Origin: a virus
UHGV virus genome: UHGV-0367612
Strand: one strand, 5' to 3'
DNA: 64,000 nt
Of this stretch, positions 41,456-63,852 are shown in pieces. How positions within the stretch are numbered: the stretch's first letter is position 1; each line of letters opens with the position of its first letter. Under the pieces are notes generated by a model. It saw nothing but the letters and a program-made list of their open reading frames with translations, ran no database searches and was not told the origin of the DNA. Position numbers and translations under genes: made by a program.

Positions 41456-42466
41456 CTAAATAAACTTTTTGTGTCTGAAAATCCATTCCAATGATTGTTT
41501 TATCCATGTCCCTACTTCATAAGGGGGGCACTTAGCTACTGTAGTACGGCCTTTGTTTATCCAATAGTTGATGTTCTCCCTCTCTGCATGGATTATGAAT
41601 TCATCAGGTATTCCCTGTATCCTAGCTAATTCTCTAGGACTCATCTGATAACCATCGGGATTGAATTGTCTGTTTGATTTCCTAGCTACTTGAGGATATG
41701 AATGCTTCAGGTTTCTGTAAACACCCGGTGCAGAAGAGTATTTACGTTTACTAGCTATGAATCTCTTTTCATTCGGATGATCTATCCAATACCTTCTTAC
41801 TTCAGATAATGTCATCTTAAATCCGGCATACATAGTTACTTCAGAATTTATCAACTCAGTGATATGTCCCCAAGGTATAGAATGGTTGTTGGATTTTAAT
41901 CCTTTTAACAAAATTCCAGTAGTTTTAGGCTTATGTTCTTTAAATTTCGTGATGTGTTTCCATATCAGTTTATGATTAACTGGGAAATCTTTCCTTATAC
42001 CCATCACTATAAGCCTTATTCTCCCAACTTGAGAATTCCCAAACTTTAACACTGAGCCAGTTAAGTAATGTAAGTGGTATTCTTCACTAAGCCATTTTAT
42101 CTCCTTAACAGAATATTTGGCTTTCGGTAAATTCTCCATGAAAAATATACTCGGTTTATAGGTTTTTATCTGGTCAAAGAACATGGCAAATGAATCATTA
42201 TCAAGAGGATTAGAGAATTCTTTTGCCCTTGTTAAAGCCATCATTGATGATGATCCACAATCTGGTGCTCCCACTATCACATCTGGGAAATCAAATACTT
42301 CTTCAGGTTTTTTGTAGAATGGTATACCTTCAAAATTCCTATTCCACTGGATATTGTTTTGAGTATGGAATAAACTCCTACTCTCAATATTTCCAGTAAG
42401 GTTGTCTTTCATTGGGTATAACCAAGAACCATTACCCCCACATACTGCTAAAATTTTGTGTTTCAT
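41456..42466 (-). CDS. C5-cytosine methyltransferase-fold protein with non-canonical motif IV (DCG instead of PCQ)
   Basis: Motif I-like ILAVCGGNGSW (FxGxGG). Motif IV-like VIVGAPDCGSSS (canonical GGPPCQxFS). Motif VI FFMENLP (ENV). Motif VIII-like GRIRLIVMGIRKD (QxRxR). Confidence 0.5.
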   Translation of the reverse strand: MKHKILAVCGGNGSWLYPMKDNLTGNIESRSLFHTQNNIQWNRNFEGIPFYKKPEEVFDFPDVIVGAPDCGSSSMMALTRAKEFSNPLDNDSFAMFFDQIKTYKPSIFFMENLPKAKYSVKEIKWLSEEYHLHYLTGSVLKFGNSQVGRIRLIVMGIRKDFPVNHKLIWKHITKFKEHKPKTTGILLKGLKSNNHSIPWGHITELINSEVTMYAGFKMTLSEVRRYWIDHPNEKRFIASKRKYSSAPGVYRNLKHSYPQVARKSNRQFNPDGYQMSPRELARIQGIPDEFIIHAERENINYWINKGRTTVAKCPPYEVGTWIKQSLEWIFRHKKFI

Positions 42467-44607: not shown

Positions 44608-45672
44608 ATGTTACAGTACTTAGAGTTATTAAAGAAAGTCCATGTTTTAGGGACTTATAGAAAGCCGGCAAGAGAAGGGATGCCTGCTTCTAAGAATTTA
44701 TTCGGTGAGATGATGGAAATTGATTTACGTGATGGGTTTCCATTATTAACTACTAAAAAGATGGCTTGGAATGCTATCAGGGTAGAGTTATTATGGTTCT
44801 TGAGAGGAATACCAAACCTAAGGTATTTATGGAGATATAATGTACATATCTGGGACCAAGATGCTTATAGGTTTTACAAGAGAAAATGTGAGACTTATAC
44901 GAGGACTCCCATATCTACTTACATGAAGACTCCATTATCTTATGAGGGTTGGTTAGAGAGATTATGGGTTATGAGAAATGGTTCTTTCTGGGAAAGAAAT
45001 CAGGACTTTGACAAGATGACCTATATGGGAGCAGTTTACCCAGCTCAATGGAGAGGTACATTTGTTTTTGGAGGGTCTTCTCATACTGATCAAATCCTAT
45101 ACATGATAGAGAATATCCGAAATAATCCTACGAGTAGATACCATATAGTTGATGCTTGGAATCCTATGGATATTGACCTGAACAAAAGGACTCCAGTGTT
45201 AGCTTTACCACCTTGTCACATGAGCCACCAAATCTTGGTAGATGTGAAGAGTGGTGAGTTTGATATGCTCATGTACCAGAGAAGTGCAGATATTTTCTTG
45301 GGAGTACCATTTAACATAGCTAGTTATGCTTTACTATGTTACTTCTATAGCATGATGACTGGATATCAACCTAGGTATCTCAAAATGATTTTTGGAAGCG
45401 TTGATTTATATGAAACTCATTTTGAGCAAGCAAGAGTTCAATTGAACAGAGATCCCAAGTTATTACCGAGATTAAAACTATTACCAAATGAGAATGGTGT
45501 TATGGATAGAGTGATGGAGTTCAATATGAAGGCTAAGGAGTATTATGATAACCCCACTCATTCGAAGTTAAATGAAGTGGTCAATACATTACAACCTTCA
45601 GACTTTGAGTTAGTGGGATATGACCCACATCCTGCAATAAAAGGGAAACTAGATACTGGGTTAGGAATCTAA
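44608..45672 (+). CDS. thyA: thymidylate synthase family enzyme (ThyA-like; TS or dUMP hydroxymethylase) with large small-domain insertion
   Basis: Strong identity to E. coli ThyA blocks: LQYLEL..V...G (N-terminus), DGFPLLTTKK, PPCH catalytic Cys, MLMYQRSADIFLGVPFNIASYALL, GYDPHPAIKG. About 45 extra residues lie between IWD and YPAQWR. The pyrimidine-specificity Asn in PFNIASY is retained. Confidence 0.85.
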   Translation: MLQYLELLKKVHVLGTYRKPAREGMPASKNLFGEMMEIDLRDGFPLLTTKKMAWNAIRVELLWFLRGIPNLRYLWRYNVHIWDQDAYRFYKRKCETYTRTPISTYMKTPLSYEGWLERLWVMRNGSFWERNQDFDKMTYMGAVYPAQWRGTFVFGGSSHTDQILYMIENIRNNPTSRYHIVDAWNPMDIDLNKRTPVLALPPCHMSHQILVDVKSGEFDMLMYQRSADIFLGVPFNIASYALLCYFYSMMTGYQPRYLKMIFGSVDLYETHFEQARVQLNRDPKLLPRLKLLPNENGVMDRVMEFNMKAKEYYDNPTHSKLNEVVNTLQPSDFELVGYDPHPAIKGKLDTGLGI

Positions 45673-51524: not shown

Positions 51525-52040
51525 TCAGTTCTTTTTCTCAAGCATTTTCACTACCTGATATCCGACCTTTGCCTGGATAACATCCATCCGGTAATCCTGG
51601 AATTTACTGTAGTGGGTGTACTCTTCCAGTTCCCTTGTCTTGATAACCTTCTCAATCCTGTTGATGAAATCCTGAACATCAACCTCATATTGTGCCTGAT
51701 GTAGTACCTGATAGTACTGGGATATCAGATCCGGAATATAGTCGCAGAGCTCATCATCCTCTGTAACCTCCATAGCCCTCTCATAAACTAAGAGTCCCAA
51801 CATATTCAGATAAGCTGTTAACCTTGTTTCCGGTACGTTGACTTCCCATATATTATCCGGTAAACATCCAAATACATCCATTATGGGTTCCATCTCTTCC
51901 CAATCCTGAGGGTCGTAAATCTTGATAGCCTTGAGCCCTGTGATCTTCTCTGCCCAAGCTAACAACTCATATTCTCCGGTTGAACCTACAGTTAATAACT
52001 TAATTTCCTTGATTCCCTGATTTGCTTGTTCGTTCTCCAT
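51525..52040 (-). CDS. hypothetical acidic protein
   Basis: 171 aa. A conserved promoter block lies immediately upstream (52068-52106). Confidence 0.5.
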   Translation of the reverse strand: MENEQANQGIKEIKLLTVGSTGEYELLAWAEKITGLKAIKIYDPQDWEEMEPIMDVFGCLPDNIWEVNVPETRLTAYLNMLGLLVYERAMEVTEDDELCDYIPDLISQYYQVLHQAQYEVDVQDFINRIEKVIKTRELEEYTHYSKFQDYRMDVIQAKVGYQVVKMLEKKN

Positions 52041-52067
52041 AATTTTATTTATTTTAAAAATTAATAT

Positions 52068-52106
52068 ATTGCAAATATAATAAACCCTGATTGCTGATGC
52101 AAATCC
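52068..52106 (-). promoter_or_regulatory. conserved Bacteroidetes-type promoter block
   Basis: Minus-strand reading: ggaTTTGCAtcagcaatcagggtttatTATATTTGCAa, 28 nt upstream of the ATG at 52040. Confidence 0.55.
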
Positions 52107-52357: not shown

Positions 52358-53851
52358 CTATTCTCTGTTAGGTAGTGAATCGTCCTCTATAACATCAACC
52401 TGTCTTCTGGCTAAGGATTTGAGATGTCTTTGGGCCTTTTTGTCCTTAGCCTTTAGAGGCTGTATGGTATCACCATATTGGTATTTCCTTTTCTTCTTTG
52501 GTGATAAGGATATAGGGCCCTTATTCCCTGATACTGGATTAGGATTTAAGGCTGTTTGAGGCTTAGGATCAAGGTCCTTGAGGCCATCATGGCTATCCTG
52601 GCCTTTACTGTCATTGGGCCTCAGTGATCCCTTTCCCATCCCCAAAAATTGAGGCCCGGACTCCATCCTTGATCCTTGATTTGTGGCTAATAAATCCTCT
52701 ACAGATCCCTGAATGTCTGATACAGCCTCAGTATAATCATTATCGGATACTGGAACACCATCCAAATAAGGAATCCCATTACCTAAACCCAAATCCATAC
52801 CTATACTATTACTCTCTTTAGAATTACTCTTAGATAATGTACTTGTAGATTGATGAATTTCTTTGTTTTTTGTGGGTTTTTCTTTTTGTAGGCTATCAGG
52901 GATAAGGTCTTCATCCGTATCCTGGTCTATATCTTCCTCTTCCCAGTCCTCTACCTGATCCTTTATCCCTTTAGATTTTCTCTCTTCTGCTTTTTGTAAT
53001 GTCAGGATTTTATCCTGGATCCTTTGTCTTAGGGTTTTGTCTTCTGTTTCTTGTAGTTGTTTTTGTAATTCTGGGATTGTGTCCTCTATCCAGTCAACGT
53101 CTTCGATTTGTTGCATTCTTTTCTCTGATCTGGCTTTGGATACAGAGTTGTCGATGTGATCATATTTATGTAGTATATCTAGGGAGATATGTTCTTTCTC
53201 TTCTAATAGTTTGAGCTGAGGTTGGTCTAGGATTTTAGCCTGTTTTATGTTATCTGTTTGTATTTCTTTCGGTTGGGATGTTTGAACTATTTTGTAGGCT
53301 TCCTCTACAGTCAAGGATTGGGATTGGTTATTTTGAGTGAGGTTGTTGTTGATGTTGATGGTAGATCCTGAAGCATAGAAGGTCCTGAATATCTCTGCTA
53401 CTTGTTTATTAGATTGTAGTAGAGTGGATAGGGTTCTGGATATCTCTCCTGATATGAAGGGTGCGTATTTATCTCCTTGTGATTTTAGTAGGATTTCTAG
53501 TTGATGTTGGATTGTACCTCTATCCTGAATAGCCCAAAGTGTGGACATGTTGGCTAAGGCTGCAGCAGTATCCTGTAACCTTTGAGGGTCTTTGAAGGCC
53601 TCTAATGTATGAGAGGTTCCGAGCATACATGATTGTATTGTTTCTACTTTGGTATTTAAAAGATGGGCCAGTTGAGGGATGGATAGTGTCCTATCATTTA
53701 GCCTGAATCCTGACATTGTGTAGATATTGACAATGTGGGAAATCAGTTTCTCTTTCCTGGTTTTTCTTAACTTTTTGCTCTTTGCTTTATTCATTTGCTG
53801 AGCTAGGATTGTAACCCCAGTAGGTCTGGGCATTCTTTCAATTTGTGTCAT
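52358..53851 (-). CDS. large mostly disordered charged protein (N-terminal folded domain, KKKRKY basic cluster near C-terminus)
   Basis: 497 aa. N-terminal ~150 aa appear structured. The rest is low-complexity Gln/Glu/Asp/Lys/Ser-rich. Confidence 0.45.
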   Translation of the reverse strand: MTQIERMPRPTGVTILAQQMNKAKSKKLRKTRKEKLISHIVNIYTMSGFRLNDRTLSIPQLAHLLNTKVETIQSCMLGTSHTLEAFKDPQRLQDTAAALANMSTLWAIQDRGTIQHQLEILLKSQGDKYAPFISGEISRTLSTLLQSNKQVAEIFRTFYASGSTININNNLTQNNQSQSLTVEEAYKIVQTSQPKEIQTDNIKQAKILDQPQLKLLEEKEHISLDILHKYDHIDNSVSKARSEKRMQQIEDVDWIEDTIPELQKQLQETEDKTLRQRIQDKILTLQKAEERKSKGIKDQVEDWEEEDIDQDTDEDLIPDSLQKEKPTKNKEIHQSTSTLSKSNSKESNSIGMDLGLGNGIPYLDGVPVSDNDYTEAVSDIQGSVEDLLATNQGSRMESGPQFLGMGKGSLRPNDSKGQDSHDGLKDLDPKPQTALNPNPVSGNKGPISLSPKKKRKYQYGDTIQPLKAKDKKAQRHLKSLARRQVDVIEDDSLPNRE

Positions 53852-54028
53852 ATTATCATGGTTTTAGTAATCACTTATATGATATCTGGAAATCTGGGTC
53901 TTAGACCTACTTATGAGTAGTTTAAGATAAATCTCTACAAATTCTTTTTAGTTAACTAGATACACAAAAAGAAAGAGCCAAATCATTCAATTTGACCCTT
54001 TCCAGTTAATTCAAATTATGGAGTTTAC

Positions 54029-54295
54029 TCAAAAAGTCGCATCTATGTCGATATATACTAAAGTCCCAGGATTAAACCTGTATTCCTCTTCCTCCTCTGT
54101 TTCTATTACCAGTTCCTCAGTCTCATCATCCATGTATATAGATTGAACGTGATCTATGGTTTGTTCTTTACTGATTTCTGATATGGTTACTATTACTGAT
54201 TCTTCCATGTTTGAGAAAGCCCATTCTATTATTCCTAGAATCTCAACCGTTTGTTCTAAGGTTTTCTCTCGTAGTTGTACTGTTAATTGATCCAT
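54029..54295 (-). CDS. small acidic protein
   Basis: 88 aa, very acidic C-terminus (ETEEEEEY). Last gene of the operon fed from the 55856-55893 promoter. Confidence 0.4.
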   Translation of the reverse strand: MDQLTVQLREKTLEQTVEILGIIEWAFSNMEESVIVTISEISKEQTIDHVQSIYMDDETEELVIETEEEEEYRFNPGTLVYIDIDATF

Positions 54296-54311
54296 GATTA
54301 ATCATTATTAA

Positions 54312-54617
54312 TTATAAAGCGTATTCTGATTTTGTAGTCAGAGATATCTGATCTATCTCATCATATTCAAATATCTTTTTCTTACCTGCATCCCAGCAGA
54401 ATGTGGTAAACTTGTTGGGCGTTATATCCGCTATTGTCGGATCTACCAGGTTAATTTTCATTGTACATCTCTTGGTTTCTTTGAGTTGAATTATCATTTT
54501 AATTTCAACTCTTTCATTGTCTTCTACCATCCTAAGGTATAATGCTAGCAACTTTATGAGTTGTTGCTTAGCATTATTACTTAAGTCTTTAAAGTCTAAA
54601 ACTAGATTCTCATTCAT
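54312..54617 (-). CDS. small hypothetical protein
   Basis: 101-aa ORF, tightly packed with its neighbours. Confidence 0.4.
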   Translation of the reverse strand: MNENLVLDFKDLSNNAKQQLIKLLALYLRMVEDNERVEIKMIIQLKETKRCTMKINLVDPTIADITPNKFTTFCWDAGKKKIFEYDEIDQISLTTKSEYAL

Positions 54618-54619
54618 GA

Positions 54620-55195
54620 TTACTCATTTTTGAGTTTATTCCAAACTTCCAGGACATTCTTGCAGGTAAGAACCTTATCATGGTTAGTACCAATGGCAGT
54701 TGAGGTCATCCATTGTACCATATCCTGAAGTTCATCATCAGAATTGATATAATCACTATCCTCATTAGAGAGGTATTCTTCCCACATTCCCTGAACCCAT
54801 TTATCAATGAGTGCATTCTTTTCCGGGCAATTTGGAATCTGATACAATAACATTTGGATTTGTTCGGATAGATCTGGTACATAATCATAATAGGAATCAT
54901 CTCCACCGTCGAAGTTATCGAGCATTACCTCCAAGTATTTACCAGCCTCTTCTAATAGAGTTTTTAACATCTTATCCCCTGGAAACTCAGGATCCTCAAA
55001 TGTCCTGACAAATATTTGGGTTGACATATCAATCTCTAACCCTTTCAAGGATTTTAAATACTCTTCGAACTGTTTATCCTTTTCTGGATTTTCTTCTAAT
55101 TCGAATTTATCAAAAGCCTTTACCCATTGTTCTCCAATGAACTGATCAGGAGTGTATTCTCCAATTTCTGTTAAAATATAAAACTTCTTTTCCAT
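54620..55195 (-). CDS. acidic hypothetical protein
   Basis: 191-aa ORF. An internal antisense ORF was ignored. Confidence 0.45.
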   Translation of the reverse strand: MEKKFYILTEIGEYTPDQFIGEQWVKAFDKFELEENPEKDKQFEEYLKSLKGLEIDMSTQIFVRTFEDPEFPGDKMLKTLLEEAGKYLEVMLDNFDGGDDSYYDYVPDLSEQIQMLLYQIPNCPEKNALIDKWVQGMWEEYLSNEDSDYINSDDELQDMVQWMTSTAIGTNHDKVLTCKNVLEVWNKLKNE

Positions 55196-55197
55196 AA

Positions 55198-55524
55198 TTA
55201 ATCTCTAAATAAGGTTAAACTTTTACCTATCTCTTCCCAATCTTTTAGTACCGGAGAATCTGGTACAAATCTTGAGTTTAGGGCTTCATTTATTTTATCC
55301 CTATGTTCAATAACGAATTTTCTCATCTGATCATTTAGGTGATCTTCATATTCTGTTACAGCAGATTCGATGAAGTCGAATAAATTACCTACTTTTGTTT
55401 CGTCTGCATCCAGTAAGATATATTCCTCATGGTCGTTGAGAATCTGTTCTATTTTCCTAAAGTCTTCTCTTAATTCAAGTAATTCATTACCTGAAAAACT
55501 TAAGGTTTTAGTGAACTGTTCCAT
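55198..55524 (-). CDS. small acidic protein, tandem paralog 1
   Basis: 108 aa. Shares FxxGxELLEL ... EY(E/K) ... DWEEIGKSL blocks with the next ORF. Confidence 0.45.
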   Translation of the reverse strand: MEQFTKTLSFSGNELLELREDFRKIEQILNDHEEYILLDADETKVGNLFDFIESAVTEYEDHLNDQMRKFVIEHRDKINEALNSRFVPDSPVLKDWEEIGKSLTLFRD

Positions 55525-55530
55525 GGCTCA

Positions 55531-55827
55531 TTATGCTAAAGGTTGTAACAATTCTTTTACTCTCTCCCAATCTCTTTGGAATCCTGAATTGGGATACCCA
55601 ACTGAAATAGCATTGCTGATTTCTTCTAAATGATCCTCAAGGAACTCCATGACATCATCGAAAATACTTTCCTTATATTCATTTACTGTATCTTCGAGTG
55701 TCTCGAAAAATTCTCTTAAACATGGGGTATCACATCTTGAATTCGGGTTAACCTGGTCTTTAATCTCCTTGTATAACCCTAATAATTGTGAGCCTTTTAA
55801 CTCGATTGATCTTTTAATATTCTCCAT
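55531..55827 (-). CDS. small acidic protein, tandem paralog 2
   Basis: 98 aa. LKGSQLLGLYKEI ... NEYKESIFDDVMEFLEDHLEEISNAIS ... DWERVKELL. Confidence 0.45.
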   Translation of the reverse strand: MENIKRSIELKGSQLLGLYKEIKDQVNPNSRCDTPCLREFFETLEDTVNEYKESIFDDVMEFLEDHLEEISNAISVGYPNSGFQRDWERVKELLQPLA

Positions 55828-55855
55828 AACTCTTTATATTTTAATTATTTAATAT

Positions 55856-55893
55856 ATGCAAATATATAAAACCTGTTTTACTTTTGCAAATCC
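55856..55893 (-). promoter_or_regulatory. conserved Bacteroidetes-type promoter block
   Basis: Minus-strand reading: ggaTTTGCAaaagTAAAACaGGtttTATATATTTGCATatat. The -33 TTTG is 20 nt from the -7 TATATTTG. The ATG at 55827 is ~30 nt downstream. Confidence 0.6.
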
Positions 55894-55906
55894 TAAATAA
55901 CCAATT

Positions 55907-56383
55907 TTACTCATCCCTATTTGTGTAATCTACCACCCTAACATAGATATGTCTATTAGGATCTTTCATTTGGTGTACGTTCTTTTCCTCTTCTCCATCA
56001 ATGATGAACGGGAATTGTACTGGAGACATGGTCATCTTGAAGGTGTACATCTCAACCCCAAATTCATTTTCCAAGATTTCAATGGTTCTCTTAAATACCT
56101 GGAAATAGACAAACGGGTAATTCTTTTCAAATTGCCGGGTCTTAATGACAAACTTTTGCATTGCTGGTGTAGTATAGCTCATTTGACAAGCATCCCTCTC
56201 AGATACCTTGAGTGCTGCAGACTGAGCTATCACAACTATGGTGGGTTTATTCTCACCATGTCTCCCCTCGATTTCAGAGGTAAACAGATAATCTATTTCC
56301 TCTGCCTTTAAGGCGATTATCAACTGTTCAATGAATTGCTTAAACGTGCAATCGTAATTTAACTGATCTAACTTAACTTCCAT
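55907..56383 (-). CDS. hypothetical protein
   Basis: 158-aa ORF downstream of the 56387 gene. Confidence 0.45.
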   Translation of the reverse strand: MEVKLDQLNYDCTFKQFIEQLIIALKAEEIDYLFTSEIEGRHGENKPTIVVIAQSAALKVSERDACQMSYTTPAMQKFVIKTRQFEKNYPFVYFQVFKRTIEILENEFGVEMYTFKMTMSPVQFPFIIDGEEEKNVHQMKDPNRHIYVRVVDYTNRDE

Positions 56384-56386
56384 AAC

Positions 56387-56722
56387 TTAAATGTCTAAAA
56401 TTAACTGAACTCCAACTAATTTGATTGAACCTTCATAAGGTTTCATATATACTCTCTCGTATTCCGGTAAAGTCATACCTAACATCTTGGCATCGTGTTC
56501 AAGCATATCCGTGGGCTCTACCTTAAGTATGTTATCGTCCTTTTGAACATAAACATAAACCCTCTCATGTTTTTGGGCGTTGGCGATAAAACTCTCAATA
56601 AAGTATTCCTTACCATAATGGTCATTACTATCGGATATTTGCTCATCCTTTACCCGTAAATACTTATTGTTTAACTCATCCCAAATTAACTCAGCTGCCT
56701 GTTGTAACTCTTTTTGCTCCAT
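56387..56722 (-). CDS. small acidic protein
   Basis: 111 aa. Promoter block immediately upstream. Confidence 0.45.
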   Translation of the reverse strand: MEQKELQQAAELIWDELNNKYLRVKDEQISDSNDHYGKEYFIESFIANAQKHERVYVYVQKDDNILKVEPTDMLEHDAKMLGMTLPEYERVYMKPYEGSIKLVGVQLILDI

Positions 56723-56750
56723 AACTTAAATATTATTAATTATTTAATTT

Positions 56751-56790
56751 ATGCAAATATAAAAAACCCAAGTTGCTAATGCAAATCTTG
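56751..56790 (-). promoter_or_regulatory. conserved promoter block overlapping a 9-bp-stem hairpin
   Basis: Minus-strand reading: ccaagaTTTGCAttagcaacttgggtttTTTATATTTGCAT. aaacccaag and cttgggttt form an inverted repeat across the spacer. Confidence 0.5.
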
Positions 56791-56817
56791 GGTTTCCTTA
56801 TTAACCTGAATAACCTT

Positions 56818-57183
56818 TTATTCTGTGATGATAACTCCTGACCTCATACCTTCATAAATAAGATAAGAGATTAACTGAAGAGGGCAGTTTACCACTCTTT
56901 TTCCATATCTCTCCAAGTCCAGAGCATACATGGTTACAAGTGATACTGTGGTAAACGTGTCTGTTTCTGGGTCATAGCTCCCACGTCCTCCAACTTCTTC
57001 GTTAATCACATCCCAATCTACAATTTCGGGATTTTGTACTGTGATACCTTCTACCTGGTCTATGTCTGGGATGGGTACTCCTCTCAAGAAATACCTATCA
57101 TCTTTTTTCTCTAACATCTCATTATCTCTAAGATAATACTGTGTTTTCAGTAGGTCTTTACCCTTAAATTTCTTGATTGCCAT
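56818..57183 (-). CDS. hypothetical protein
   Basis: 121-aa ORF overlapping the upstream gene by 20 nt. Confidence 0.4.
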   Translation of the reverse strand: MAIKKFKGKDLLKTQYYLRDNEMLEKKDDRYFLRGVPIPDIDQVEGITVQNPEIVDWDVINEEVGGRGSYDPETDTFTTVSLVTMYALDLERYGKRVVNCPLQLISYLIYEGMRSGVIITE

Positions 57184-57448
57184 TTTCTACGATTTCTAAA
57201 ATGTAAGTGTTATTATCCCATACAAATGTGGGATTGTTGATTGATTTCGCTTTACTTTGTAATAACCTCAACCCTACTGATTGTGGTATTCTTATCATTA
57301 CCTTATCACGTATCCTACCGCTCTCTACTACCTCTTGGTGTATTTTATTATCCCATAAGAAAAGCGTTTCCTTCTCAGAATCCATGTAAATGAAATCTCT
57401 GATTGGGATTTGCTCTAATAAATATTCAAAATCTTTCGTGATTAGCAT
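57164..57448 (-). CDS. hypothetical protein
   Basis: 94-aa ORF. A terminator-like hairpin (ggagta...tactcc, 57456-57480) and a TAtttaTG element lie upstream. Confidence 0.4.
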   Translation of the reverse strand: MLITKDFEYLLEQIPIRDFIYMDSEKETLFLWDNKIHQEVVESGRIRDKVMIRIPQSVGLRLLQSKAKSINNPTFVWDNNTYILEIVENGNQEI

Positions 57449-57508
57449 ATCTAGTTTACATTAAAAAGGAGTAAAGCATAAACTCTACTCCTTTGCATAA
57501 ATACTCGC

Positions 57509-58000
57509 TTATTGGATATTATAGGATGTCATATACCTTTTTATCAAATACAATAGCATGATAAAAGAGTATAACCCTTCTTCTTTAGAGGATACAACTC
57601 CATACCCAAATAAATCCATGAAGAAATTCTTATAGATTGATGTCATATTATCATCAATCATGAGTTGAACAATATTGATGATATCACCAATCCTGTCCTT
57701 TTGTACCAGGATAAACCGACGGTCAATGTCTATGTATAACCCATAACTCTTAAACAAGGTATTCAAGATTTCAGCTATATCCACCGTGTTAATCTTGAAG
57801 TCTGGGCTTATACCCTGAATTAACTCTACCGGAGTTATAGCTTTACCTGGATTTACATCACTCTCCATTGAGAATTCATACCCATCAACATCAAGAACAT
57901 TGTTTATGCTATATTCTTTGATGATATAGTCCTTGAGTTCATCGATGTCAATGTAACTATTGTGCATCACCTTGGGTCCCTCCAGTGACCAATTGCTCAA
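57509..58000 (-). CDS. hypothetical protein
   Basis: 163-aa ORF. Confidence 0.4.
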   Translation of the reverse strand: MSNWSLEGPKVMHNSYIDIDELKDYIIKEYSINNVLDVDGYEFSMESDVNPGKAITPVELIQGISPDFKINTVDIAEILNTLFKSYGLYIDIDRRFILVQKDRIGDIINIVQLMIDDNMTSIYKNFFMDLFGYGVVSSKEEGLYSFIMLLYLIKRYMTSYNIQ

Positions 58001-58568
58001 GGATACATTTTAACCGGGTCAAAAGGTCGCAGATAACCTCTGGATTCTTTGCTACCCATGAGTGGTTGTTGATAACCCATTGCCGATGTTTGTGATATAC
58101 CAGTAATGAATCAATCATCTCATTCACTGATAGGATAGCATATTCAATGGGTGCCCTGAACTCGAAATGGAGTGTAGGTTTTCTTGAACCTTGAGTCTCA
58201 GCCCATACTACTTGGAATGGGTCAAATTCCAATGAAATCAAATCCCATGGTAAATCATTTACCTGTTTCCAAAAATCCTCTTGGAATTGTCCCAAAGTCT
58301 CCTCTGCAATCCGATCATGTAAAGTGGCTTTACCTGATTTTACTTTGGATTGCAAGGTTCTCATGGCAGCTAACGTGATTGCATCTGCCGAAAGTAAGAG
58401 TGGTTTTCTCTTCTCTTCTTGTACCGGAGCATCTTCTACTCCAGTATTCTCTGCTACTTCCTGAACTCCTGCTAATGGTGCCCCAGTTTCGGGGTCAAAT
58501 TTTGGTTGTGGAATCTCAACCTTTCTTCCTCTTTTTGCCATTTCTTTTAATTTTAAGTTATATAACAA
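57957..58568 (-). CDS. hypothetical protein with Pro/Glu-rich N-terminus
   Basis: 203-aa ORF. Confidence 0.4.
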   Translation of the reverse strand: MLYNLKLKEMAKRGRKVEIPQPKFDPETGAPLAGVQEVAENTGVEDAPVQEEKRKPLLLSADAITLAAMRTLQSKVKSGKATLHDRIAEETLGQFQEDFWKQVNDLPWDLISLEFDPFQVVWAETQGSRKPTLHFEFRAPIEYAILSVNEMIDSLLVYHKHRQWVINNHSWVAKNPEVICDLLTRLKCILEQLVTGGTQGDAQ

Positions 58569-58581
58569 TGGTTATTAGTTC

Positions 58582-59091
58582 CTATGCTTCACCCATGATT
58601 TTATTGGGTACATAGCCGGCTTTTGGTTTACCTATTTTCATAAATCCCTGAATCCATGCTTTAGCAGCATCTCCAACTGCCATAATGGCCAGATCATTTA
58701 TATTTTCAATGGTCATGTTCTTACTTTTCTCATTTTGCTTATGAATAATGGGTAGTGCTCTCAATACCAAGGCATGGTTATGGGTTTGATCATTCACTTC
58801 TTCCATTAACTTAACCATAATACTGATCTTATCATCCTCGTTAAACTCCTTGTGGTCTTTAAGGAAACCATCCACTGTATCTGTTAACATACTGTGTAAT
58901 TCCTTATCCAGATCATCCATATCTCCCATAGTTGAGAAGTAATTTCTGAACAGATTCATCACTACACTTACCATTAAACTATCTATAAAAGTCGGGGTTA
59001 TAATACCCGACTCTATGAGTTCTTGAATTTTTCTGATTTCTTCCAACTCTTTATCTGGAAGAGAATCCAGACTATTTATTCTTTTTCCCAT
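58582..59091 (-). CDS. hypothetical acidic protein
   Basis: 169-aa ORF. Confidence 0.45.
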   Translation of the reverse strand: MGKRINSLDSLPDKELEEIRKIQELIESGIITPTFIDSLMVSVVMNLFRNYFSTMGDMDDLDKELHSMLTDTVDGFLKDHKEFNEDDKISIMVKLMEEVNDQTHNHALVLRALPIIHKQNEKSKNMTIENINDLAIMAVGDAAKAWIQGFMKIGKPKAGYVPNKIMGEA

Positions 59092-59324
59092 TATTTATTC
59101 TTTAAGGTTTCATAATCTTCTTCTGTAATCTCTGAGCATCCGGTAATTTCTACTGTGTTACCGATAGGAGCATATTTGGCTGTAGTCTCCACTCTAATCT
59201 GGTTTTTGATCTCTTCAATCTCTCCCATTGGGTGTTCTCCCTCGGTTTCTACATAGAAAATGTGTAGTGACTTTCTACCCCTGTAGTTTGTCACGTTTGC
59301 GAAAATCATAAAATAGCGTTTCAT
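59091..59324 (-). CDS. small hypothetical protein
   Basis: 77 aa, ATGA-type coupling with the upstream gene. Confidence 0.4.
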   Translation of the reverse strand: MKRYFMIFANVTNYRGRKSLHIFYVETEGEHPMGEIEEIKNQIRVETTAKYAPIGNTVEITGCSEITEEDYETLKNK

Positions 59325-59328
59325 CTCT

Positions 59329-59739
59329 TTATCTTATTTTAGTCCATTCAATCGGTTTACCTTTTATCTCTGTAATAAAAGAGTCCCAGTTCTGATTGAC
59401 AAGCAATATATCCATGGGCTCAACTTTTGAGAATTTTTCCAAGAACTCCTCAAAGTTGTTCATGATATTCTGGGATAGCTCCTCATTCTTTCCAAAATGT
59501 TTGTGTAACTCTTGCCTGAGTAATTTCTCAGATTGGATTCGGAATTGGTCTCCAGCCACTTTTAATTTCCCAGACCAGATATTCGTGTATTTCAAATCAT
59601 CCAGTTTTTCCATTAATACAGTGGATACCAGAACAAGCACCATGTATGATGATGCCTGTTCCATTGTAATCTTAGTTCCCATAAGCTCTCCCCCTTTTAA
59701 CCATTTTCTCATGGTGACCCTTAACTGCTTCTGGGTCAA
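59329..59739 (-). CDS. hypothetical protein
   Basis: 136-aa ORF. Confidence 0.4.
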   Translation of the reverse strand: MTQKQLRVTMRKWLKGGELMGTKITMEQASSYMVLVLVSTVLMEKLDDLKYTNIWSGKLKVAGDQFRIQSEKLLRQELHKHFGKNEELSQNIMNNFEEFLEKFSKVEPMDILLVNQNWDSFITEIKGKPIEWTKIR

Positions 59740-60028
59740 ACCCTTTCACTTTTTCCCTTATGGGCACGATGTGAGTCTTATATAAAGACTTCCATAAAAA
59801 CTCAGGTAAGGGTCTAAATGAATTCTCTGATACCTTATCCCACTTTGCCCGGAGTGAGTTAATGCAAAACCGGAATGTACTCATGTCCTCCATTGCATTA
59901 AAATTCGTTATCAGATCATCAAAATCCTTTTTCATGTCCTCAATAAAATTGTTATAAGGGAAATTCTCAGTGTTCTCCAAATTATACTTTCCCAAATACT
60001 CTGTTACTTCCATGTACCTAACCTCCAT
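59672..60028 (-). CDS. hypothetical protein
   Basis: 118-aa ORF overlapping its neighbour. The true start may be an internal Met. Confidence 0.35.
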   Translation of the reverse strand: MEVRYMEVTEYLGKYNLENTENFPYNNFIEDMKKDFDDLITNFNAMEDMSTFRFCINSLRAKWDKVSENSFRPLPEFLWKSLYKTHIVPIREKVKGFDPEAVKGHHEKMVKRGRAYGN

Positions 60029-60321
60029 TAAGCTAAATATTTCTCTTGCAATTCTTTTAACTCTTTTTGTGCCTTTCTCAACTCTTTTGCATCCTCTCCA
60101 CCAGATGCTCGGAATACCCTTAATTCGGCTTTCTCAATTTGATTCCGAACCTTTTGCCGGTAAGACTTCCTTTTAACCGTGTCAATCATACCCTTTGGGT
60201 ATTTGTACCTGAGTTCTTTTCTCACTACCACTTCCTTAACAACCTCTAACTCCATTTGTTCTTTGGCAGACTTGGTTTCCTTAACCTGTTCTTCCTTTTT
60301 TGTTTTGACTTTTGTTTTCAT
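60028..60321 (-). CDS. small basic coiled-coil protein
   Basis: 97 aa, Lys/Glu-rich. First gene downstream of the 60363-60400 promoter. Confidence 0.45.
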   Translation of the reverse strand: MKTKVKTKKEEQVKETKSAKEQMELEVVKEVVVRKELRYKYPKGMIDTVKRKSYRQKVRNQIEKAELRVFRASGGEDAKELRKAQKELKELQEKYLA

Positions 60322-60362
60322 AACTTACTCATTATTAATTATTATAATTATTATTAAATGCA

Positions 60363-60400
60363 ATGCAAATATATAAAACCTGTTTTACTTTTGCAAATCC
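60363..60400 (-). promoter_or_regulatory. conserved promoter block (38/38 nt identical to the 55856 copy)
   Basis: Plus-strand text tgcaaatatataaaacctgttttacttttgcaaatcc is identical to 55858-55894. Confidence 0.6.
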
Positions 60401-60404
60401 TTTG

Positions 60405-60599
60405 TTACCCAATTATCAATCCGATAATCATTATTATCAGGAAGAATAAGAAGGCGATCCCCACTATGGTGTCAGCTCTTTTCTTATTCTTTTCCCTGAT
60501 CTCTTCCATGGTCATGGGTTTGGTTATTTTTGAACCTCCATCCACTATAGCCCCGTAAATTACAGCTACCACTATTATTACTAAGATGATTGTAATCAT
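60405..60599 (-). CDS. small 2-TM membrane protein
   Basis: 64 aa. MITIILVIIVVAVIYGAIV ... IVGIAFLFFLIIMIIGLIIG. Confidence 0.4.
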   Translation of the reverse strand: MITIILVIIVVAVIYGAIVDGGSKITKPMTMEEIREKNKKRADTIVGIAFLFFLIIMIIGLIIG

Positions 60600-60904
60600 G
60601 ATTTCTTTGTTTTAAGTTTGTAAATCTTGTCAATCTCAGTTTGAGATACCACCAATACGTTATTCTCTTCATTGAATGTCCAATCCAATTCCTTAAATAA
60701 TGGATCCATTCTTAAACTCTCTATCAACCTTTTCATGGGTAGTTTATCTGAAAAATAGATAATATTGTTGGTGATGTCTATGGATACCCTTATACGATTA
60801 TGAGAATCCTCTATCCCATGATTTAACTCTGAACTCTCTACGATGTAGTCTAAGAAATCACTTAAACTCTCATCTAAAACTGCATTACCTGTTGAGCCTT
60901 TCAT
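60596..60904 (-). CDS. hypothetical protein
   Basis: 102-aa ORF. Confidence 0.4.
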   Translation of the reverse strand: MKGSTGNAVLDESLSDFLDYIVESSELNHGIEDSHNRIRVSIDITNNIIYFSDKLPMKRLIESLRMDPLFKELDWTFNEENNVLVVSQTEIDKIYKLKTKKS

Positions 60905-61248
60905 AATCCTAAATACTTTTCTAGTTCTGCTTCTTCTTTTAATTCACGTAATTGCTTACGAGTCGTTTTCTTTTTACTTTGAAGCTCTTTAATTTGTCTC
61001 TGTAAATCCTCCACTGCCGCTTCAATATCATAAGGATCATTCCCATCCACTGAAGTCCCAGTATAAATCTCACCCTTGGGAACCTTAATCCCATAATCAG
61101 ATAAACTCTTGTCCCGATATGGATAGGGAATAGTAATCTTCCCGTAATTCTTTGGAGCATCCCACTTTTTCTTCATCTCGGTTTCATTAATCCCATATAC
61201 ACATGATATGAGAATCCCTATCAATACTGCCACTACGTATTTCATCAA
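60901..61248 (-). CDS. secreted/lipoprotein-like small protein
   Basis: 115 aa. N-terminus MMKYVVAVLIGILISCVYG is signal-peptide-like with a Cys. Basic coiled-coil C-terminus. Confidence 0.4.
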   Translation of the reverse strand: MMKYVVAVLIGILISCVYGINETEMKKKWDAPKNYGKITIPYPYRDKSLSDYGIKVPKGEIYTGTSVDGNDPYDIEAAVEDLQRQIKELQSKKKTTRKQLRELKEEAELEKYLGL

Positions 61249-62054
61249 TAATTGAATAAGTGATCCAAGACCTGTCTATCTAACCCAATCTCTTTTGCCG
61301 GTTTCAAGTCAAACTCATGGTTTAACTGGTAGTTAAATCCATTATAGACGTAATAGTCATTGCAAATGGCTATCTTGTTTTTCTCCATTTCCAATTTGAT
61401 CCGATCTACAATATTCTCTCTATAAGTTCCCGGGAATCCAGTTTCTTCAATAACATCCACTACCCGATCTTCAAATGATCTTCTAACCTTTTGAGATTCT
61501 AATTCTCGGAATGGGTAAATTGCCTCTTCAAACCTGTTGATAAGGTCATTGGCTGAGTCCAAGAGATATTCCGGATTGAGCATCTTTTCTAAGGCTTCTG
61601 TGTGTAACCCCTTGACATGAATCCCAGCACCTTCCGGAATGCACATCCCATTAGTGCATATTTGCCGGTAAATGGCTGCGGTCATTTGGAATTTCATTGA
61701 CCCATCATAGGAATTGTAAAAACTCAATTTCGGGTGTAATGAATCTACTCCCTCCATTTTAACCTTTTGGTCTTTGAGAATCAAATCCAATCGAGTGATA
61801 GCCCCACCCTTAATGAGTTTAGCCTGAGGTTCTACCTTGAATTTATCAGAAAATAATTCAATGATAGGTTGAAATACTACCTTATTCTCAACCAAGTGGT
61901 ATTTCTCAGAGCAAAAATTCACTATTCGTGCATTCTCTGTTCCTGGATTGACAATCACTGCATACTCATTGCTGGAATTAACCTGAATCCCCGGTATCAA
62001 TTCTGATACCTTTCTTTTAATAACTGGTTGGTAAATCTGTTCTAACGTACTCAT
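61245..62054 (-). CDS. hypothetical protein
   Basis: 269 aa, the largest protein of the early array. Promoter block upstream. Confidence 0.45.
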   Translation of the reverse strand: MSTLEQIYQPVIKRKVSELIPGIQVNSSNEYAVIVNPGTENARIVNFCSEKYHLVENKVVFQPIIELFSDKFKVEPQAKLIKGGAITRLDLILKDQKVKMEGVDSLHPKLSFYNSYDGSMKFQMTAAIYRQICTNGMCIPEGAGIHVKGLHTEALEKMLNPEYLLDSANDLINRFEEAIYPFRELESQKVRRSFEDRVVDVIEETGFPGTYRENIVDRIKLEMEKNKIAICNDYYVYNGFNYQLNHEFDLKPAKEIGLDRQVLDHLFNY

Positions 62055-62083
62055 AATTAATTATTTTATTTATTATTAAATGC

Positions 62084-62125
62084 AATGCAAATATAATATA
62101 CTCATATTCACATTGCAAATCCTAT
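62084..62125 (-). promoter_or_regulatory. conserved promoter block
   Basis: Minus-strand reading: aggaTTTGCAatgtgaatatgagtatatTATATTTGCATtgca. Confidence 0.55.
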
Positions 62126-62134
62126 TTTACTTTA

Positions 62135-62563
62135 TTAACTTTCCCATCTCTCTGTTACGAAGATGAAATCGGCTGCAAAGGTAACATCTACCCCATTCTC
62201 GAAAAATTGACTGATACCTCTTTGACATTGGTACTCATCAAAATCATAATACTCATCTCCATCTATATCAAAGTCCTCATTAACAGATTCAAATACCCAT
62301 TGGTGAAAACCATAACCTCTGGCATCATTCTCGAAGGTATCGAAATGACATAACTGCCAATTCCTATCTCTGAACCATTTGAAGAAATCCTTCCAGTAAA
62401 TATTGTTTTTCTCCAATTTCCCATTAATTAAAGTGTAACCCGTTATATATTCCCATACTCCGGTTCTATTCTGAGAATCATTCCGGATGAATCTTTTGAT
62501 TGCATCCTCTGTAGTCTTCTTTGCTAATTGCAAGCTTAACTGGTTTAAATCTTGTATCTCCAT
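62135..62563 (-). CDS. hypothetical acidic protein
   Basis: 142-aa ORF with a promoter block upstream. Confidence 0.45.
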   Translation of the reverse strand: MEIQDLNQLSLQLAKKTTEDAIKRFIRNDSQNRTGVWEYITGYTLINGKLEKNNIYWKDFFKWFRDRNWQLCHFDTFENDARGYGFHQWVFESVNEDFDIDGDEYYDFDEYQCQRGISQFFENGVDVTFAADFIFVTERWES

Positions 62564-62584
62564 ATATTTATTATTAAAAATTAT

Positions 62585-62624
62585 AATGCAAATATATAAA
62601 TCCTCAGTTTCCTATGCAAATCTC
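62585..62624 (-). promoter_or_regulatory. conserved promoter block
   Basis: Minus-strand reading: gagaTTTGCAtaggaaactgaggatttATATATTTGCATt. Confidence 0.55.
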
Positions 62625-62657
62625 TTGTTACGTGATTAACATGAAAAGAGGCTCATT

Positions 62658-63077
62658 TTACTGAGCCTCTGGTTTTAGTCCAAATTTAAGATTGAAATCT
62701 CTGAGCTTCTCTCGTGCTCTCTCTTTATAAAAGATCTTTTCCCACCATTTTAGTTTCCCAATAAAGAAATCTAGTATTGGTTGTTGGTTTTTCAATATAA
62801 CTTTATGTAGCAATGAAAATTGCTCACTAGATAAATCGTGCATGATATTAGCCATAGCCCCTGTATTGATCCCCAATTTGGTGTACAAACTGATAGAATC
62901 TAGGTTGAGGTCTGTCCAATCATCAACTGATATCCCGGGTATAACACATTCTACTGATTTACCTAAAACCTTTTTATTAGCGGCTGCTATAACCTGAGCC
63001 AGAGTTTTAATAACTGCCAACTCATCCTGGTTAAAAGGAGGCCTATTCTTCATCGCTGTCCTCGGCATAACTTTCAA
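62658..63077 (-). CDS. hypothetical protein
   Basis: 139-aa ORF. Confidence 0.4.
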   Translation of the reverse strand: MKVMPRTAMKNRPPFNQDELAVIKTLAQVIAAANKKVLGKSVECVIPGISVDDWTDLNLDSISLYTKLGINTGAMANIMHDLSSEQFSLLHKVILKNQQPILDFFIGKLKWWEKIFYKERAREKLRDFNLKFGLKPEAQ

Positions 63078-63852
63078 GTTGTTTAAGTGGTTGTGACGTA
63101 GTTACCCATTTATTCCATCGTAAATAGAAAGGAGTGGGTTCTTTCTCCGGGTCTCTCTCCATTTCTCTATACTCTTTCCGGAATCTCTCTTTCTCTTTCT
63201 CACTCATGAATTCTGGGAAAATGTGGAGTTTCTGTGTTGTGAAGGATTCTTGAGCTTTTCCTGGAACCTTGATCTCAAGTGTACCAGTAAATTCTCCAAA
63301 CCTGTATACTTGGACTTCATCTGTCCTTTTCTTGTATATCTTTATCCCCACTATAATGGTTGGGTCGAATTTATCTAACATGGGGTTCTTTGATTCTTTG
63401 ATTAACCGAACCATGTATTGGAACTTGTCTGTTCTCCAATCATCATTCTCCCACTCTACCTTTTCAAACCTCTCCATTTGGTGAAGTAAATCTCGAGTCA
63501 CGAATACAAATCCCTGTTCTCGTAAAGCCTTGATTAATTCATCTTGATCCTGAGAACTGTTAATGATCTCCATGATCTCTTCTACATAGCTCTCTGAATC
63601 TGAATCGATCTTACCAACCTTTTTAGCCTTTTTCTCCTTAGCTTCAAGTGGCAATAACCCGGATAACTTCTTGAGATATGTGATAGCTTTCTCCACATCT
63701 TCCTGATTATCCATTGTAACCTCAATTCTCATTGGACCGTTGTGGGTAAACTTTGGTCCAGTTGCAAACTCTGATCCCTGTTTATAGAGTTTATCTGATA
63801 TGAGCCTTGACTCTTCATCAAATAATTGTACTCTTATTCTTTTCTCTTCCAT
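63043..63852 (-). CDS. hypothetical charged protein
   Basis: 269-aa ORF, Lys/Glu-rich. Confidence 0.45.
   Translation of the reverse strand: MEEKRIRVQLFDEESRLISDKLYKQGSEFATGPKFTHNGPMRIEVTMDNQEDVEKAITYLKKLSGLLPLEAKEKKAKKVGKIDSDSESYVEEIMEIINSSQDQDELIKALREQGFVFVTRDLLHQMERFEKVEWENDDWRTDKFQYMVRLIKESKNPMLDKFDPTIIVGIKIYKKRTDEVQVYRFGEFTGTLEIKVPGKAQESFTTQKLHIFPEFMSEKEKERFRKEYREMERDPEKEPTPFYLRWNKWVTTSQPLKQLESYAEDSDEE

Follow-up and report, generated by a model that had tools for sequence, protein, structure and literature searches.

Virus genome UHGV-0367612 was analysed as a stretch of 64,000 nucleotides (the window), and positions 54029-63852 hold an array of small genes which we read, with a probability of roughly 0.6, as the downstream end (10 kb) of a bank of mini-operons that spans ~17 kb and is transcribed by the host, probably early, in a lytic-type 'Flandersviridae'-like phage of ~85 kb from gut Bacteroidota. 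The array consists of 23 open reading frames (ORFs) of 64-269 amino acids (aa), every one on the minus strand and back-to-back, with a coding fraction of 0.94. A first-pass annotation, made by a model from the letters alone, had described around 25 small genes on the minus strand; the strand is right, and the count is 23. Early timing, binding-type functions and roles in takeover, defence evasion or exclusion are what we infer for these genes. A description as putative early, dispensable, host-interaction genes is supported by the architecture and the turnover of the array.

Small size sets the array apart. The median protein length is 118 aa, versus 274 aa for the genes at 1-41.3 kb (Mann-Whitney p = 5e-6). 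Acidity does not, because the whole phage proteome is acidic: 74% of array proteins have an isoelectric point (pI) below 6 versus 58% at 1-41.3 kb (p = 0.08, a trend only), so the earlier statement that most products are acidic holds but does not distinguish them from the rest of the genome. The ratio of nonsynonymous to synonymous substitution rates (dN/dS), calculated pairwise against two relatives, was 0-0.44 for every array gene, with dS of 0.13-2.2, and the 23 ORFs are therefore real genes. Purifying selection acts on all of them, dN/dS being below 1 throughout. Most have no database homologs, which might speak for spurious ORFs or for a block of non-coding or regulatory DNA, but the 94% coding fraction on one strand, the conserved frames with these dN/dS and dS values and the lineage-wide protein families refute this, and Rfam and tRNA scans gave no matches; the probability of such an explanation is negligible.

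A repeated promoter cassette, together with terminators, divides the array into mini-operons. The block ATTTGCA-N21-TATTTGCA occurs seven times in the window and not once in 100 dinucleotide shuffles. Five copies are inside the array, in intergenic gaps of 79-95 bp, and each is directed at the downstream gene. Written as TTTG(CA)-N20-TATATTTG(CA), the block is an exact fit to the Bacteroidota primary-sigma consensus TTTG-N20-TATATTTGC; for this factor (sigma-ABfr) a -33 TTTG and a -7 TANNTTTG(Y) have been reported (PMC6847099, PMC12632263). All 11 extended cassettes have TTTG, a 20-nt spacer and TATATTTGC, and are intergenic and correctly oriented (one copy in the relative L004 has 19 nt). Eight are located in the small-ORF locus, one upstream of a 171-aa acidic gene, one in an opposite-strand cluster and one in the replication module; nine of the 11 fall in the interval from the recombination genes to 51.5 kb, and the 41-kb structural block has none. 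With the relaxed pattern TTTG-N19-21-TAnnTTTG, 13 sites were found against 1.96 expected over ~83 kb. At equivalent positions in six IMG/VR relatives and in the deposited phage MT121964, the boxes are invariant and the spacers vary. The aligned unit is ~100 bp long and includes GGTAACA, the -33 box GATTTGCA, a 20-nt spacer, the -7 box TATATTTGCA and an A/T-rich leader up to the ATG, without a Shine-Dalgarno sequence. The minus-strand cassettes in and next to the array are as follows (z, folding score relative to shuffles).

62587-62621, minus strand: core of cassette P62621, with -33 TTTG and -7 TATATTTG; converted to the P60398 sequence in L002
62086-62120, minus strand: core of P62120, which forms a moron-like insert with the DUF932 gene; both are missing in the distant relatives L007-L009
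60364-60398, minus strand: core of P60398, with 39 identical bases in common with P55891
56752-56802, minus strand: terminator hairpin plus cassette P56786 (core 56752-56786); the -33 box is inside the hairpin; z = -3.05
55857-55891, minus strand: core of P55891, which drives the last operon and is lost with it in L015 and L028
52070-52104, minus strand: sixth minus-strand cassette, outside the array, which drives the 171-aa acidic gene 51525-52040

By this last cassette, the predicted cassette-driven region reaches past the lower boundary of the array (51525-52104).

The cassettes also appear to exchange with each other. In L002, a 47-bp core identical to P60398 of the window is present at the orthologous P62621 site, and the flanks match the window on both sides; all core differences from P62621 of the window fall in the spacer. 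The pattern bears the mark of recombination between cassettes, as a single clear event.

In all cassettes, both boxes widen the host consensus in the same way, so that ATTTGCA is repeated 28 bp apart, and the P62120 cassette forms a 16-bp inverted repeat (delta-G -17.7 kcal/mol). The repeated ATTTGCA and the inverted repeat may reflect a regulator binding besides sigma.

Compared with shuffles, four hairpins fold much better (z -3.1 to -4.3). One, at ~56756-56802, overlaps P56786 as listed above; the other three are given below, with the T-runs read by eye from the sequence.

62647-62670, minus strand: intrinsic terminator with a 9-bp GC-rich stem followed by UUUU; z = -4.2
57465-57494, minus strand: intrinsic terminator at the end of an eight-gene unit, with a 13-bp stem and a U-run; z = -4.3, none of 200 shuffles as good
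53970-54003, minus strand: intrinsic terminator closing the array, with a 15-bp stem and UUUUU; z = -3.35

A terminator is adjacent to P62621 and overlaps P56786, that is, it accompanies two of the five array cassettes; the other cassette intergenic regions also fold better than shuffles, without a clear U-run. The five cassettes and four terminators delimit seven transcription units, which agrees with the at least five units annotated at first; the promoter of the first unit lies beyond the window end.

We propose that, after DNA entry, host RNA polymerase with sigma-ABfr would recognise the ~100-bp cassettes, and that the short operons would be transcribed while insulated from one another by the intrinsic terminators. 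The units would be early because host RNA polymerase should read such cassettes without any phage factor, and early expression by the host enzyme fits both the promoter type and the concentration of cassettes in the locus. The products would be small lineage-restricted proteins without enzymatic domains, most likely binding host or phage macromolecules.

The locus opens upstream of the window end with an UpxY/NusG-family antiterminator gene (L010:3735-4412; NCBIfam E = 2.3e-8, PHROG E = 9e-5), which is followed by a gene for a conserved 300-aa protein (L010:4399-5301). The two proteins are recognisable in MT121964 at 31% and 37% identity, respectively. The pair may permit read-through of the array terminators or of the 41-kb late operon. 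A reading of the 300-aa protein as sigma-region-4-like was dropped, as no Pfam, NCBIfam or PHROG model backs it.

The proximal genes (63852 to ~56800) are listed below. Identities in the gene lists refer, where no other phage is named, to IMG/VR relatives, which fall into a close group and a distant group (L007-L009), and the starts of 62658-63068 and 59329-59682 follow the public gene call.

63043-63852, minus strand: 269-aa conserved protein, third gene of its unit; 80-98% identity; dN/dS 0.02-0.07
62658-63068, minus strand: 136-aa basic protein (pI 9.4), last of the first unit; 76-98% identity; dN/dS 0.03-0.13
62135-62563, minus strand: 142-aa acidic protein, single-gene unit; 84-89% identity in the close group, 51% in the distant group; no family match
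61245-62054, minus strand: 269-aa DUF932/TIGR03299 protein; PF06067 E = 1.5e-12, 48.2 bits versus a cutoff of 23
60901-61245, minus strand: 114-aa lipoprotein-like protein with signal segment and L-I-S-C lipobox; 64-95% identity
60596-60904, minus strand: 102-aa acidic protein; cut to 52 aa in L011
60405-60599, minus strand: 64-aa protein with two transmembrane (TM) segments; maximum KD19 3.31; 100% identical in close relatives, undetectable in distant ones
60028-60321, minus strand: 97-aa basic Lys-rich protein (pI 9.9), head of the eight-gene unit; 84-99% identity; 38% in MT121964
59672-60028, minus strand: 118-aa protein; 72-94% identity; 25% in MT121964
59329-59682, minus strand: 117-aa protein; 67-91% identity
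59091-59324, minus strand: 77-aa protein; 64-100% identity
58582-59091, minus strand: 169-aa acidic protein; 75-84% identity in the close group, 33-35% in the distant group
57957-58541, minus strand: 194-aa protein; 86-91% identity in the close group, 49-54% in the distant group
57509-57967, minus strand: 152-aa acidic protein; 74-80% identity in the close group, undetectable in the distant group; dN/dS ~0.2
57164-57448, minus strand: 94-aa protein in a unit without its own cassette; undetectable in the distant group
56818-57183, minus strand: 121-aa conserved acidic protein; 95-97% identity in the close group, 61% in the distant group; dN/dS 0.04

The family of the 269-aa protein 63043-63852 is broad (139 clusters at 50% identity), and a weak ArgR-like winged-helix resemblance at residues 93-140 is the sole hint to its nature. 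The basic protein 60028-60321 has a paralog upstream of the window, a 173-aa Lys/Glu/Ala-rich protein (L010:9054-9575; phmmer E = 1.7e-7), and each of the two genes is the first after a cassette.

Fast evolution had been claimed for the array as a whole, and this is true only for its distal third. Most genes of the proximal two-thirds have dN/dS of 0.15 or less, similar to baseline genes, and those at 0.1 or less, with 76-99% identity across relatives, are like capsid genes in this respect; in the distant group most of their products keep 49-85% identity, with two at 33-40%; the DUF932 protein, the two-TM protein, the 152-aa protein and the product of 57164-57448 were not detectable there. The boundary gene 57509-57967 is already at dN/dS of ~0.2. 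The distal genes have dN/dS of 0.11-0.44, and in the distant group their products show 23-34% identity or are undetectable. In MT121964, which has 37% portal identity, 2 of the 23 array genes are detectable versus 7 of 16 baseline genes; it keeps the architecture of the locus: an UpxY-like antiterminator gene and the 300-aa header gene at the front, cassettes in clusters, and the 497-aa gene at the end. A conserved, syntenic core of housekeeping genes, the pattern named by the first-pass annotation as contrary to its proposal, is accordingly not seen in this distant relative. A tblastn search of GenBank phages with the two most conserved array proteins gave no match at E <= 1e-3, and the distant wide-family members P0177 and P0216 had no loci in IMG/VR.

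These data also bear on the possibility that most array genes are essential phage components which are lineage-specific and unrecognisable, such as transcription-switch, replisome accessory or nucleoid-organising proteins. The proximal 15-16 genes are syntenic in 6 of 6 IMG/VR relatives at their low dN/dS, the family of the first gene is broad, the basic 97-aa and the 118-aa proteins persist to MT121964, and the UpxY/NusG-like gene heads the locus. But 21 of the 23 proteins are unrecognisable at a portal identity where structural genes persist, natural deletion variants lose one to six genes, and the DUF932, two-TM and 152-aa proteins are undetectable in distant relatives, and we hold such an essential core to be less likely than not. 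In the mini-operon bank that we prefer, the conserved proximal genes, including the genes for the 269-aa protein and for the basic 97-aa protein as well as the DUF932-lipoprotein-two-TM operon, would serve early functions fixed in the lineage.

The distal part (54.0-56.7 kb) contains the following genes.

56387-56722, minus strand: 111-aa acidic protein; gene precisely excised in L011, L015 and L028
55907-56383, minus strand: 158-aa protein; joined to remnants of other genes in L015 and L028; 23% identity in the distant group
55531-55827, minus strand: paralog copy A, 98 aa, three-helix in the AF2 model (pLDDT 83.5); dN/dS 0.34-0.44
55198-55524, minus strand: paralog copy B, 108 aa; confined to the lineage of the window (L010, L012, L029)
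54620-55195, minus strand: 191-aa strongly acidic protein, net charge -25; 173 clusters, all within the phage lineage
54312-54617, minus strand: 101-aa protein; 71-81% identity in the close group, undetectable in the distant group; dN/dS 0.25-0.29
54029-54295, minus strand: 88-aa very acidic protein, net charge -19; 79-86% identity in the close group, ~24% in the distant group

At least five gene-content versions of this part were found among strains with 95-99.7% identical flanks.

Version 1 (window, L010, L012, L029): distal content of 111-158-98-108-191-101-88 aa
Version 2 (L011): without the 111-aa gene, without copy B and without the greater part of the 191-aa gene
Version 3 (L015): without the 111-aa gene; deletion with one end within the 158-aa gene and the other within the 88-aa gene (the whole last operon)
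Version 4 (L028), losses: the 111-aa gene, and 55920-54454 (P55891, both paralogs, 191-aa gene)
Version 4 (L028), gains: a 115-aa orphan (L028:7069-7416) before the 88-aa gene, and upstream a 61-aa two-TM orphan (L028:2068-2253)
Version 5 (L001-L006): a single paralog, 48% identical to copy A; the 111-aa gene at 41-42% identity in two of three contigs

The comparison for presence and absence, which had been suggested as a check, thus shows that near-identical strains differ by whole-gene gains and losses. The 111-aa gene 56387-56722 shows 41-42% identity in two close relatives and is undetectable in a third (L002/L005), and judging from its precise excision it appears dispensable in nature. 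The 61-aa orphan of L028 sits in the lipoprotein operon, upstream of the counterpart of 60596-60904, and neither orphan has a counterpart in the window.

The two distal paralogs are homologous end to end (BLASTP E = 7e-10, 24% identity) and family alignments agree, so the tandem pair noticed at first is solid; no other relative has a second copy. Copy A keeps only ~51% identity from the window to L012, against more than 95% for copy B beside it, a contrast that points to allelic replacement of copy A. The paralog family comprises 55 clusters, all on contigs of at most 84 kb. A Foldseek search with the copy A model gave a best E of 2.3 against solved structures and only itself among viral models; PDB profile matches of the family were set aside as compositional helical-bundle similarity. 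In the 191-aa family the motifs GE[YF]TPD..IG..W, GDDS..DY and IG..HD are conserved, so it should be a folded family and not just low-complexity sequence, and its AF2 model is of low confidence (pLDDT 56.7). HMMER profile-against-sequence searches suggest a tentative paralogy of 54620-55195 with the 171-aa protein 51525-52040, the two having a ~40-residue motif in common (DD..DY[IV]PDL..Q). The duplicated genes of the first-pass annotation are therefore borne out by the tandem pair and by a second family, with a third that stays tentative.

In the reading of the array as a mini-operon bank, the distal operons, which carry the tandem paralogs and the most acidic two of the proteins, would be dispensable strain-specific host-interaction genes, for takeover or counter-defence. 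The cassettes would have a second use as expression signals that are portable and as sequences on which homologous recombination can act, and this would account for genes being gained, lost and replaced, as with T4-type promoter-early stem-loop (PeSL) cassettes and lambdoid morons. The cassette P62120 with its DUF932 gene is regarded as moron-like because the two are missing as a unit from the distant relatives L007-L009. A bolder version, which we hold only tentatively and expect more readily to fail than to stand, is that the cassettes may be the Bacteroidota counterpart of PeSL, mobile regulatory elements that start early transcription and also recombine among themselves, that the locus would thereby be a nursery of orphan genes and a platform for their exchange, and that the strain-variable distal operon, with the helical paralogs and the 191-aa and 88-aa acidic proteins, would encode novel inhibitors of Bacteroides defence or core machinery.

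Searches for functions gave little. Pfam, PHROGs, NCBIfam and PADLOC matched none of the 23 array proteins except 61245-62054 (DUF932/TIGR03299), so the earlier remark that no enzymatic motif is recognisable holds for the array at large, with this one match as the exception. PADLOC matches at E of 0.003-0.01 were judged to be noise. No helix-turn-helix (HTH; Aca-like) or Acr family was found in the array by Pfam or NCBIfam.

We weighed a narrower explanation, suggested by the first-pass annotation, that the array is an anti-defence or DNA-mimic locus in which small acidic proteins, above all 54620-55195, 54029-54295 and the two paralogs, would imitate DNA or in another way block restriction-modification, CRISPR or further defences. 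Their net charges are -25, -19, -13 and -10, the distal operon is strain-variable and dispensable, signs of allelic replacement and the array's highest dN/dS are seen in copy A, and a neighbouring C5 methylase, likely a counter-restriction gene, is hypervariable too. Small, strongly acidic proteins in a putative early region also recall Ocr and ArdA, but no sequence, profile or fold similarity to these was detected: in none of 27 members of the 54620-55195 family did Pfam, at E up to 5, match ArdA (PF07275) or Ocr, the family profile gave no ArdA or Ocr match against PDB sequences, and Foldseek reached a best E of 0.56 with the low-confidence model. Similarity to other solved anti-defence proteins was likewise absent in Pfam, NCBIfam, PDB profiles and Foldseek. 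Moreover, acidity does not mark these proteins out within the genome, dN/dS stays under 1 everywhere, an Aca-like HTH gene is missing, and the 191-aa model is too poor to judge a surface. An anti-defence role for the array thus seems unlikely to us. An ArdA assignment of 54620-55195 from an N-terminal motif was rejected on the results of Pfam, the PDB sequence profile and Foldseek.

The operon 60405-62054 deserves its own consideration. Its DUF932 protein also matches NCBIfam TIGR03299, judged by E value (1.2e-6), and has 25% identity to homologs in Bacteroides phages DAC16-23; no homolog is detectable in the distant IMG/VR relatives. As the first-pass annotation had it, 60405-60599 contains two hydrophobic segments and 60901-61248 an N-terminal signal-like segment ending in a lipobox-compatible L-I-S-C, both topologies being hydropathy predictions only. 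T5 Llp and T4 Imm and Sp are early membrane proteins or lipoproteins that act in superinfection exclusion. The operon is a plausible envelope or superinfection-exclusion unit, which would remodel the envelope or block the receptor or DNA entry of rival phages; besides the lipobox and the TM segments, the 61-aa two-TM orphan added to this operon in L028 and a further protein with an N-terminal TM segment just upstream of the window are in line with it. There is, however, no homology to known exclusion proteins, and the DUF932 family has no established function, so this role of the operon is doubtful.

Several observations weigh against the array being an early, accessory bank of mini-operons. 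The word 'early' is taken from the promoter type, and host-type promoters could equally serve middle genes. One cassette is in the replication module and one drives a plus-strand cluster. The genes 57164-57448 and 56818-57183 have no cassette and are behind the strong terminator 57465-57494, a placement for which the simple model has no account. Conservation of the proximal genes is on a par with that of structural genes, so that 'accessory' may be wrong for them. Several indel breakpoints are inside genes and not at cassettes, and therefore cassette recombination is not the sole route of turnover. Finally, for none of the array proteins has a function been demonstrated or deduced from homology.

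The window is 100% identical across 10,958 bp to an 84,879-bp ENA metagenome scaffold, on which gene order was taken from precomputed Pfam matches and our own scans. The structural block encodes the capsid, portal and tape measure proteins, baseplate J/W/V and TerL, the last with both an intein and an HNH domain. The replication and recombination block contains DnaB-like and SF2 helicases, dUTPase, Cpn10, ThyA, PolA, ligase, gp32, RecA, an AAA ATPase, an SbcD/SbcC-like pair and a PDDEXK nuclease. The PolA domains are clear (DNA_pol_A_exo1 and DNA_pol_A), DnaB_C is a weak precomputed match only, and the neighbouring 337-aa and 293-aa genes gave no DnaG match. After the PDDEXK nuclease come 34 small genes in ~16-17 kb, and the array is the last 23 of them. 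Beyond it are the 497-aa gene, the 171-aa acidic gene, the short opposite-strand cluster with a second thymidylate synthase, the C5 methylase and again TerL; otherwise the genome order runs along one strand.

This organisation is matched with the candidate family 'Flandersviridae', for which Benler et al. 2021 (PMC8008677) give a median genome of 85.2 kb, Bacteroides and Parabacteroides as reported hosts and a ~20-kb locus of ORFs without detectable similarity. Here the genome is 84.9 kb, and the order of the structural block, the PolA/DnaB-like replication module and the locus of ORFs without known relatives is collinear; the predicted host phylum is Bacteroidota in both. The locus that contains the array is almost certainly the one described for that family. 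The putative membership in the family is based on genome size and gene order. Identical proteins carry the NCBI/UniProt label 'Ackermannviridae sp.' (uncharacterised), which is consistent with the reported sister position. Only the existence of the locus is noted in the accessible text of that paper; cassettes, operons, paralogs, the conserved/hypervariable split and strain turnover do not appear there.

We predict a host in Bacteroidota from the promoter type and the DUF932 homologs in Bacteroides phages. The best portal identity among cultured or deposited phages was 37%, and no relative turned up with the portal query among 185,579 representative bacterial genomes, so that neither a prophage nor an isolate points to the host. 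Neither lysogeny genes nor prophage copies were found by genome annotation and this portal search, and megablast of the array against 50,697 phage records gave no match.

Other genes of this phage are also of note. The C5 cytosine DNA methyltransferase (41456-42466) has 62-66% identity in close relatives, where its neighbours have 93-97%, with dS saturated; this likely counter-restriction gene looks like it underwent allelic replacement. The intein in the TerL gene (38056-40518) carries an HNH_3 endonuclease domain. A 176-aa HNH/HTH gene (4391-4921) beside the DnaB-like helicase gene is missing in the otherwise collinear strain L017, and its product is probably a mobile homing endonuclease.

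Two thymidylate synthases are encoded, one of 354 aa at 44608-45672 on the plus strand, in the opposite-strand cluster with cassette P44293, and one of 251 aa at L016:13840-14595 in the replication module, adjoining the Cpn10/GroES homolog. In the 497-aa protein (52358-53851) the N-terminal ~190 residues are kept to MT121964 (30% identity), and the C-terminal part is low-complexity, charged and length-variable; family searches were without match.

Two known systems are the closest precedents, and the resemblance to both appears architectural, not by homology. According to PMC6873191, citing Stewart et al. 1998, SPO1's module for host takeover has 26 genes in 12.4 kb. The two have in common ~10-12 kb, ~24 small genes, several short operons, strong host-sigma promoters, products mostly without enzymatic domain and dispensable single genes. 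Unlike the array, the SPO1 module lies in the terminal redundancy, its promoters are of the -35/-10 type instead of Bacteroidota -33/-7, and its early timing and host shut-off were shown experimentally, while both would be predictions for the array. No sequence homology to SPO1 gp37-gp60 was found, 22 of the 23 proteins being without any PHROG match. The hyperplastic regions of T4-type phages carry PeSL cassettes (PMC2839356, PMC4122927). Both there and here, short host-type promoter cassettes, some with a terminator stem-loop, are repeated and concentrated in a region where non-essential orphan genes abound, and close relatives differ by insertion, deletion or replacement, with exchange between cassettes seen here in L002. 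The phage lineage and promoter consensus are different, a terminator accompanies only two of five cassettes here, and many breakpoints are intragenic.

The moron-like insert and the array's place in the genome also recall lambdoid phages. P62120 and DUF932 together are a promoter with its gene, inserted where relatives have the two flanking genes side by side, as in the morons, and the array occupies the slot between replication/recombination and packaging genes, as in the nin-type region; these were reportedly described in 2000 by Juhala and by Hendrix with their colleagues. Morons are typically expressed from prophages, whereas neither lysogeny genes nor prophage copies turned up here.

Earlier work had singled out the locus as dark matter of the candidate family, and arrays of this kind are familiar in other phages. 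New here are the operon map, the conserved/variable split and the PeSL-like behaviour of cassettes in a Bacteroidota promoter grammar. 'Flandersviridae'-like phages have a reported gut prevalence near that of crAss-like phages, and about one fifth of their genome is uncharacterised. This block now resolves into three classes: fixed early-type genes, a membrane-associated operon and a small dispensable, strain-variable operon. The split gives a short ranked list of candidates to be screened in Bacteroides for toxicity on expression and for anti-defence activity. As a promoter-plus-leader unit for Bacteroidota, the consensus cassette is compact and apparently strong, and it might find use in engineering. 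If cassette shuffling is true, a mechanism of T4-type coliphages would extend to another phage lineage and another promoter grammar.

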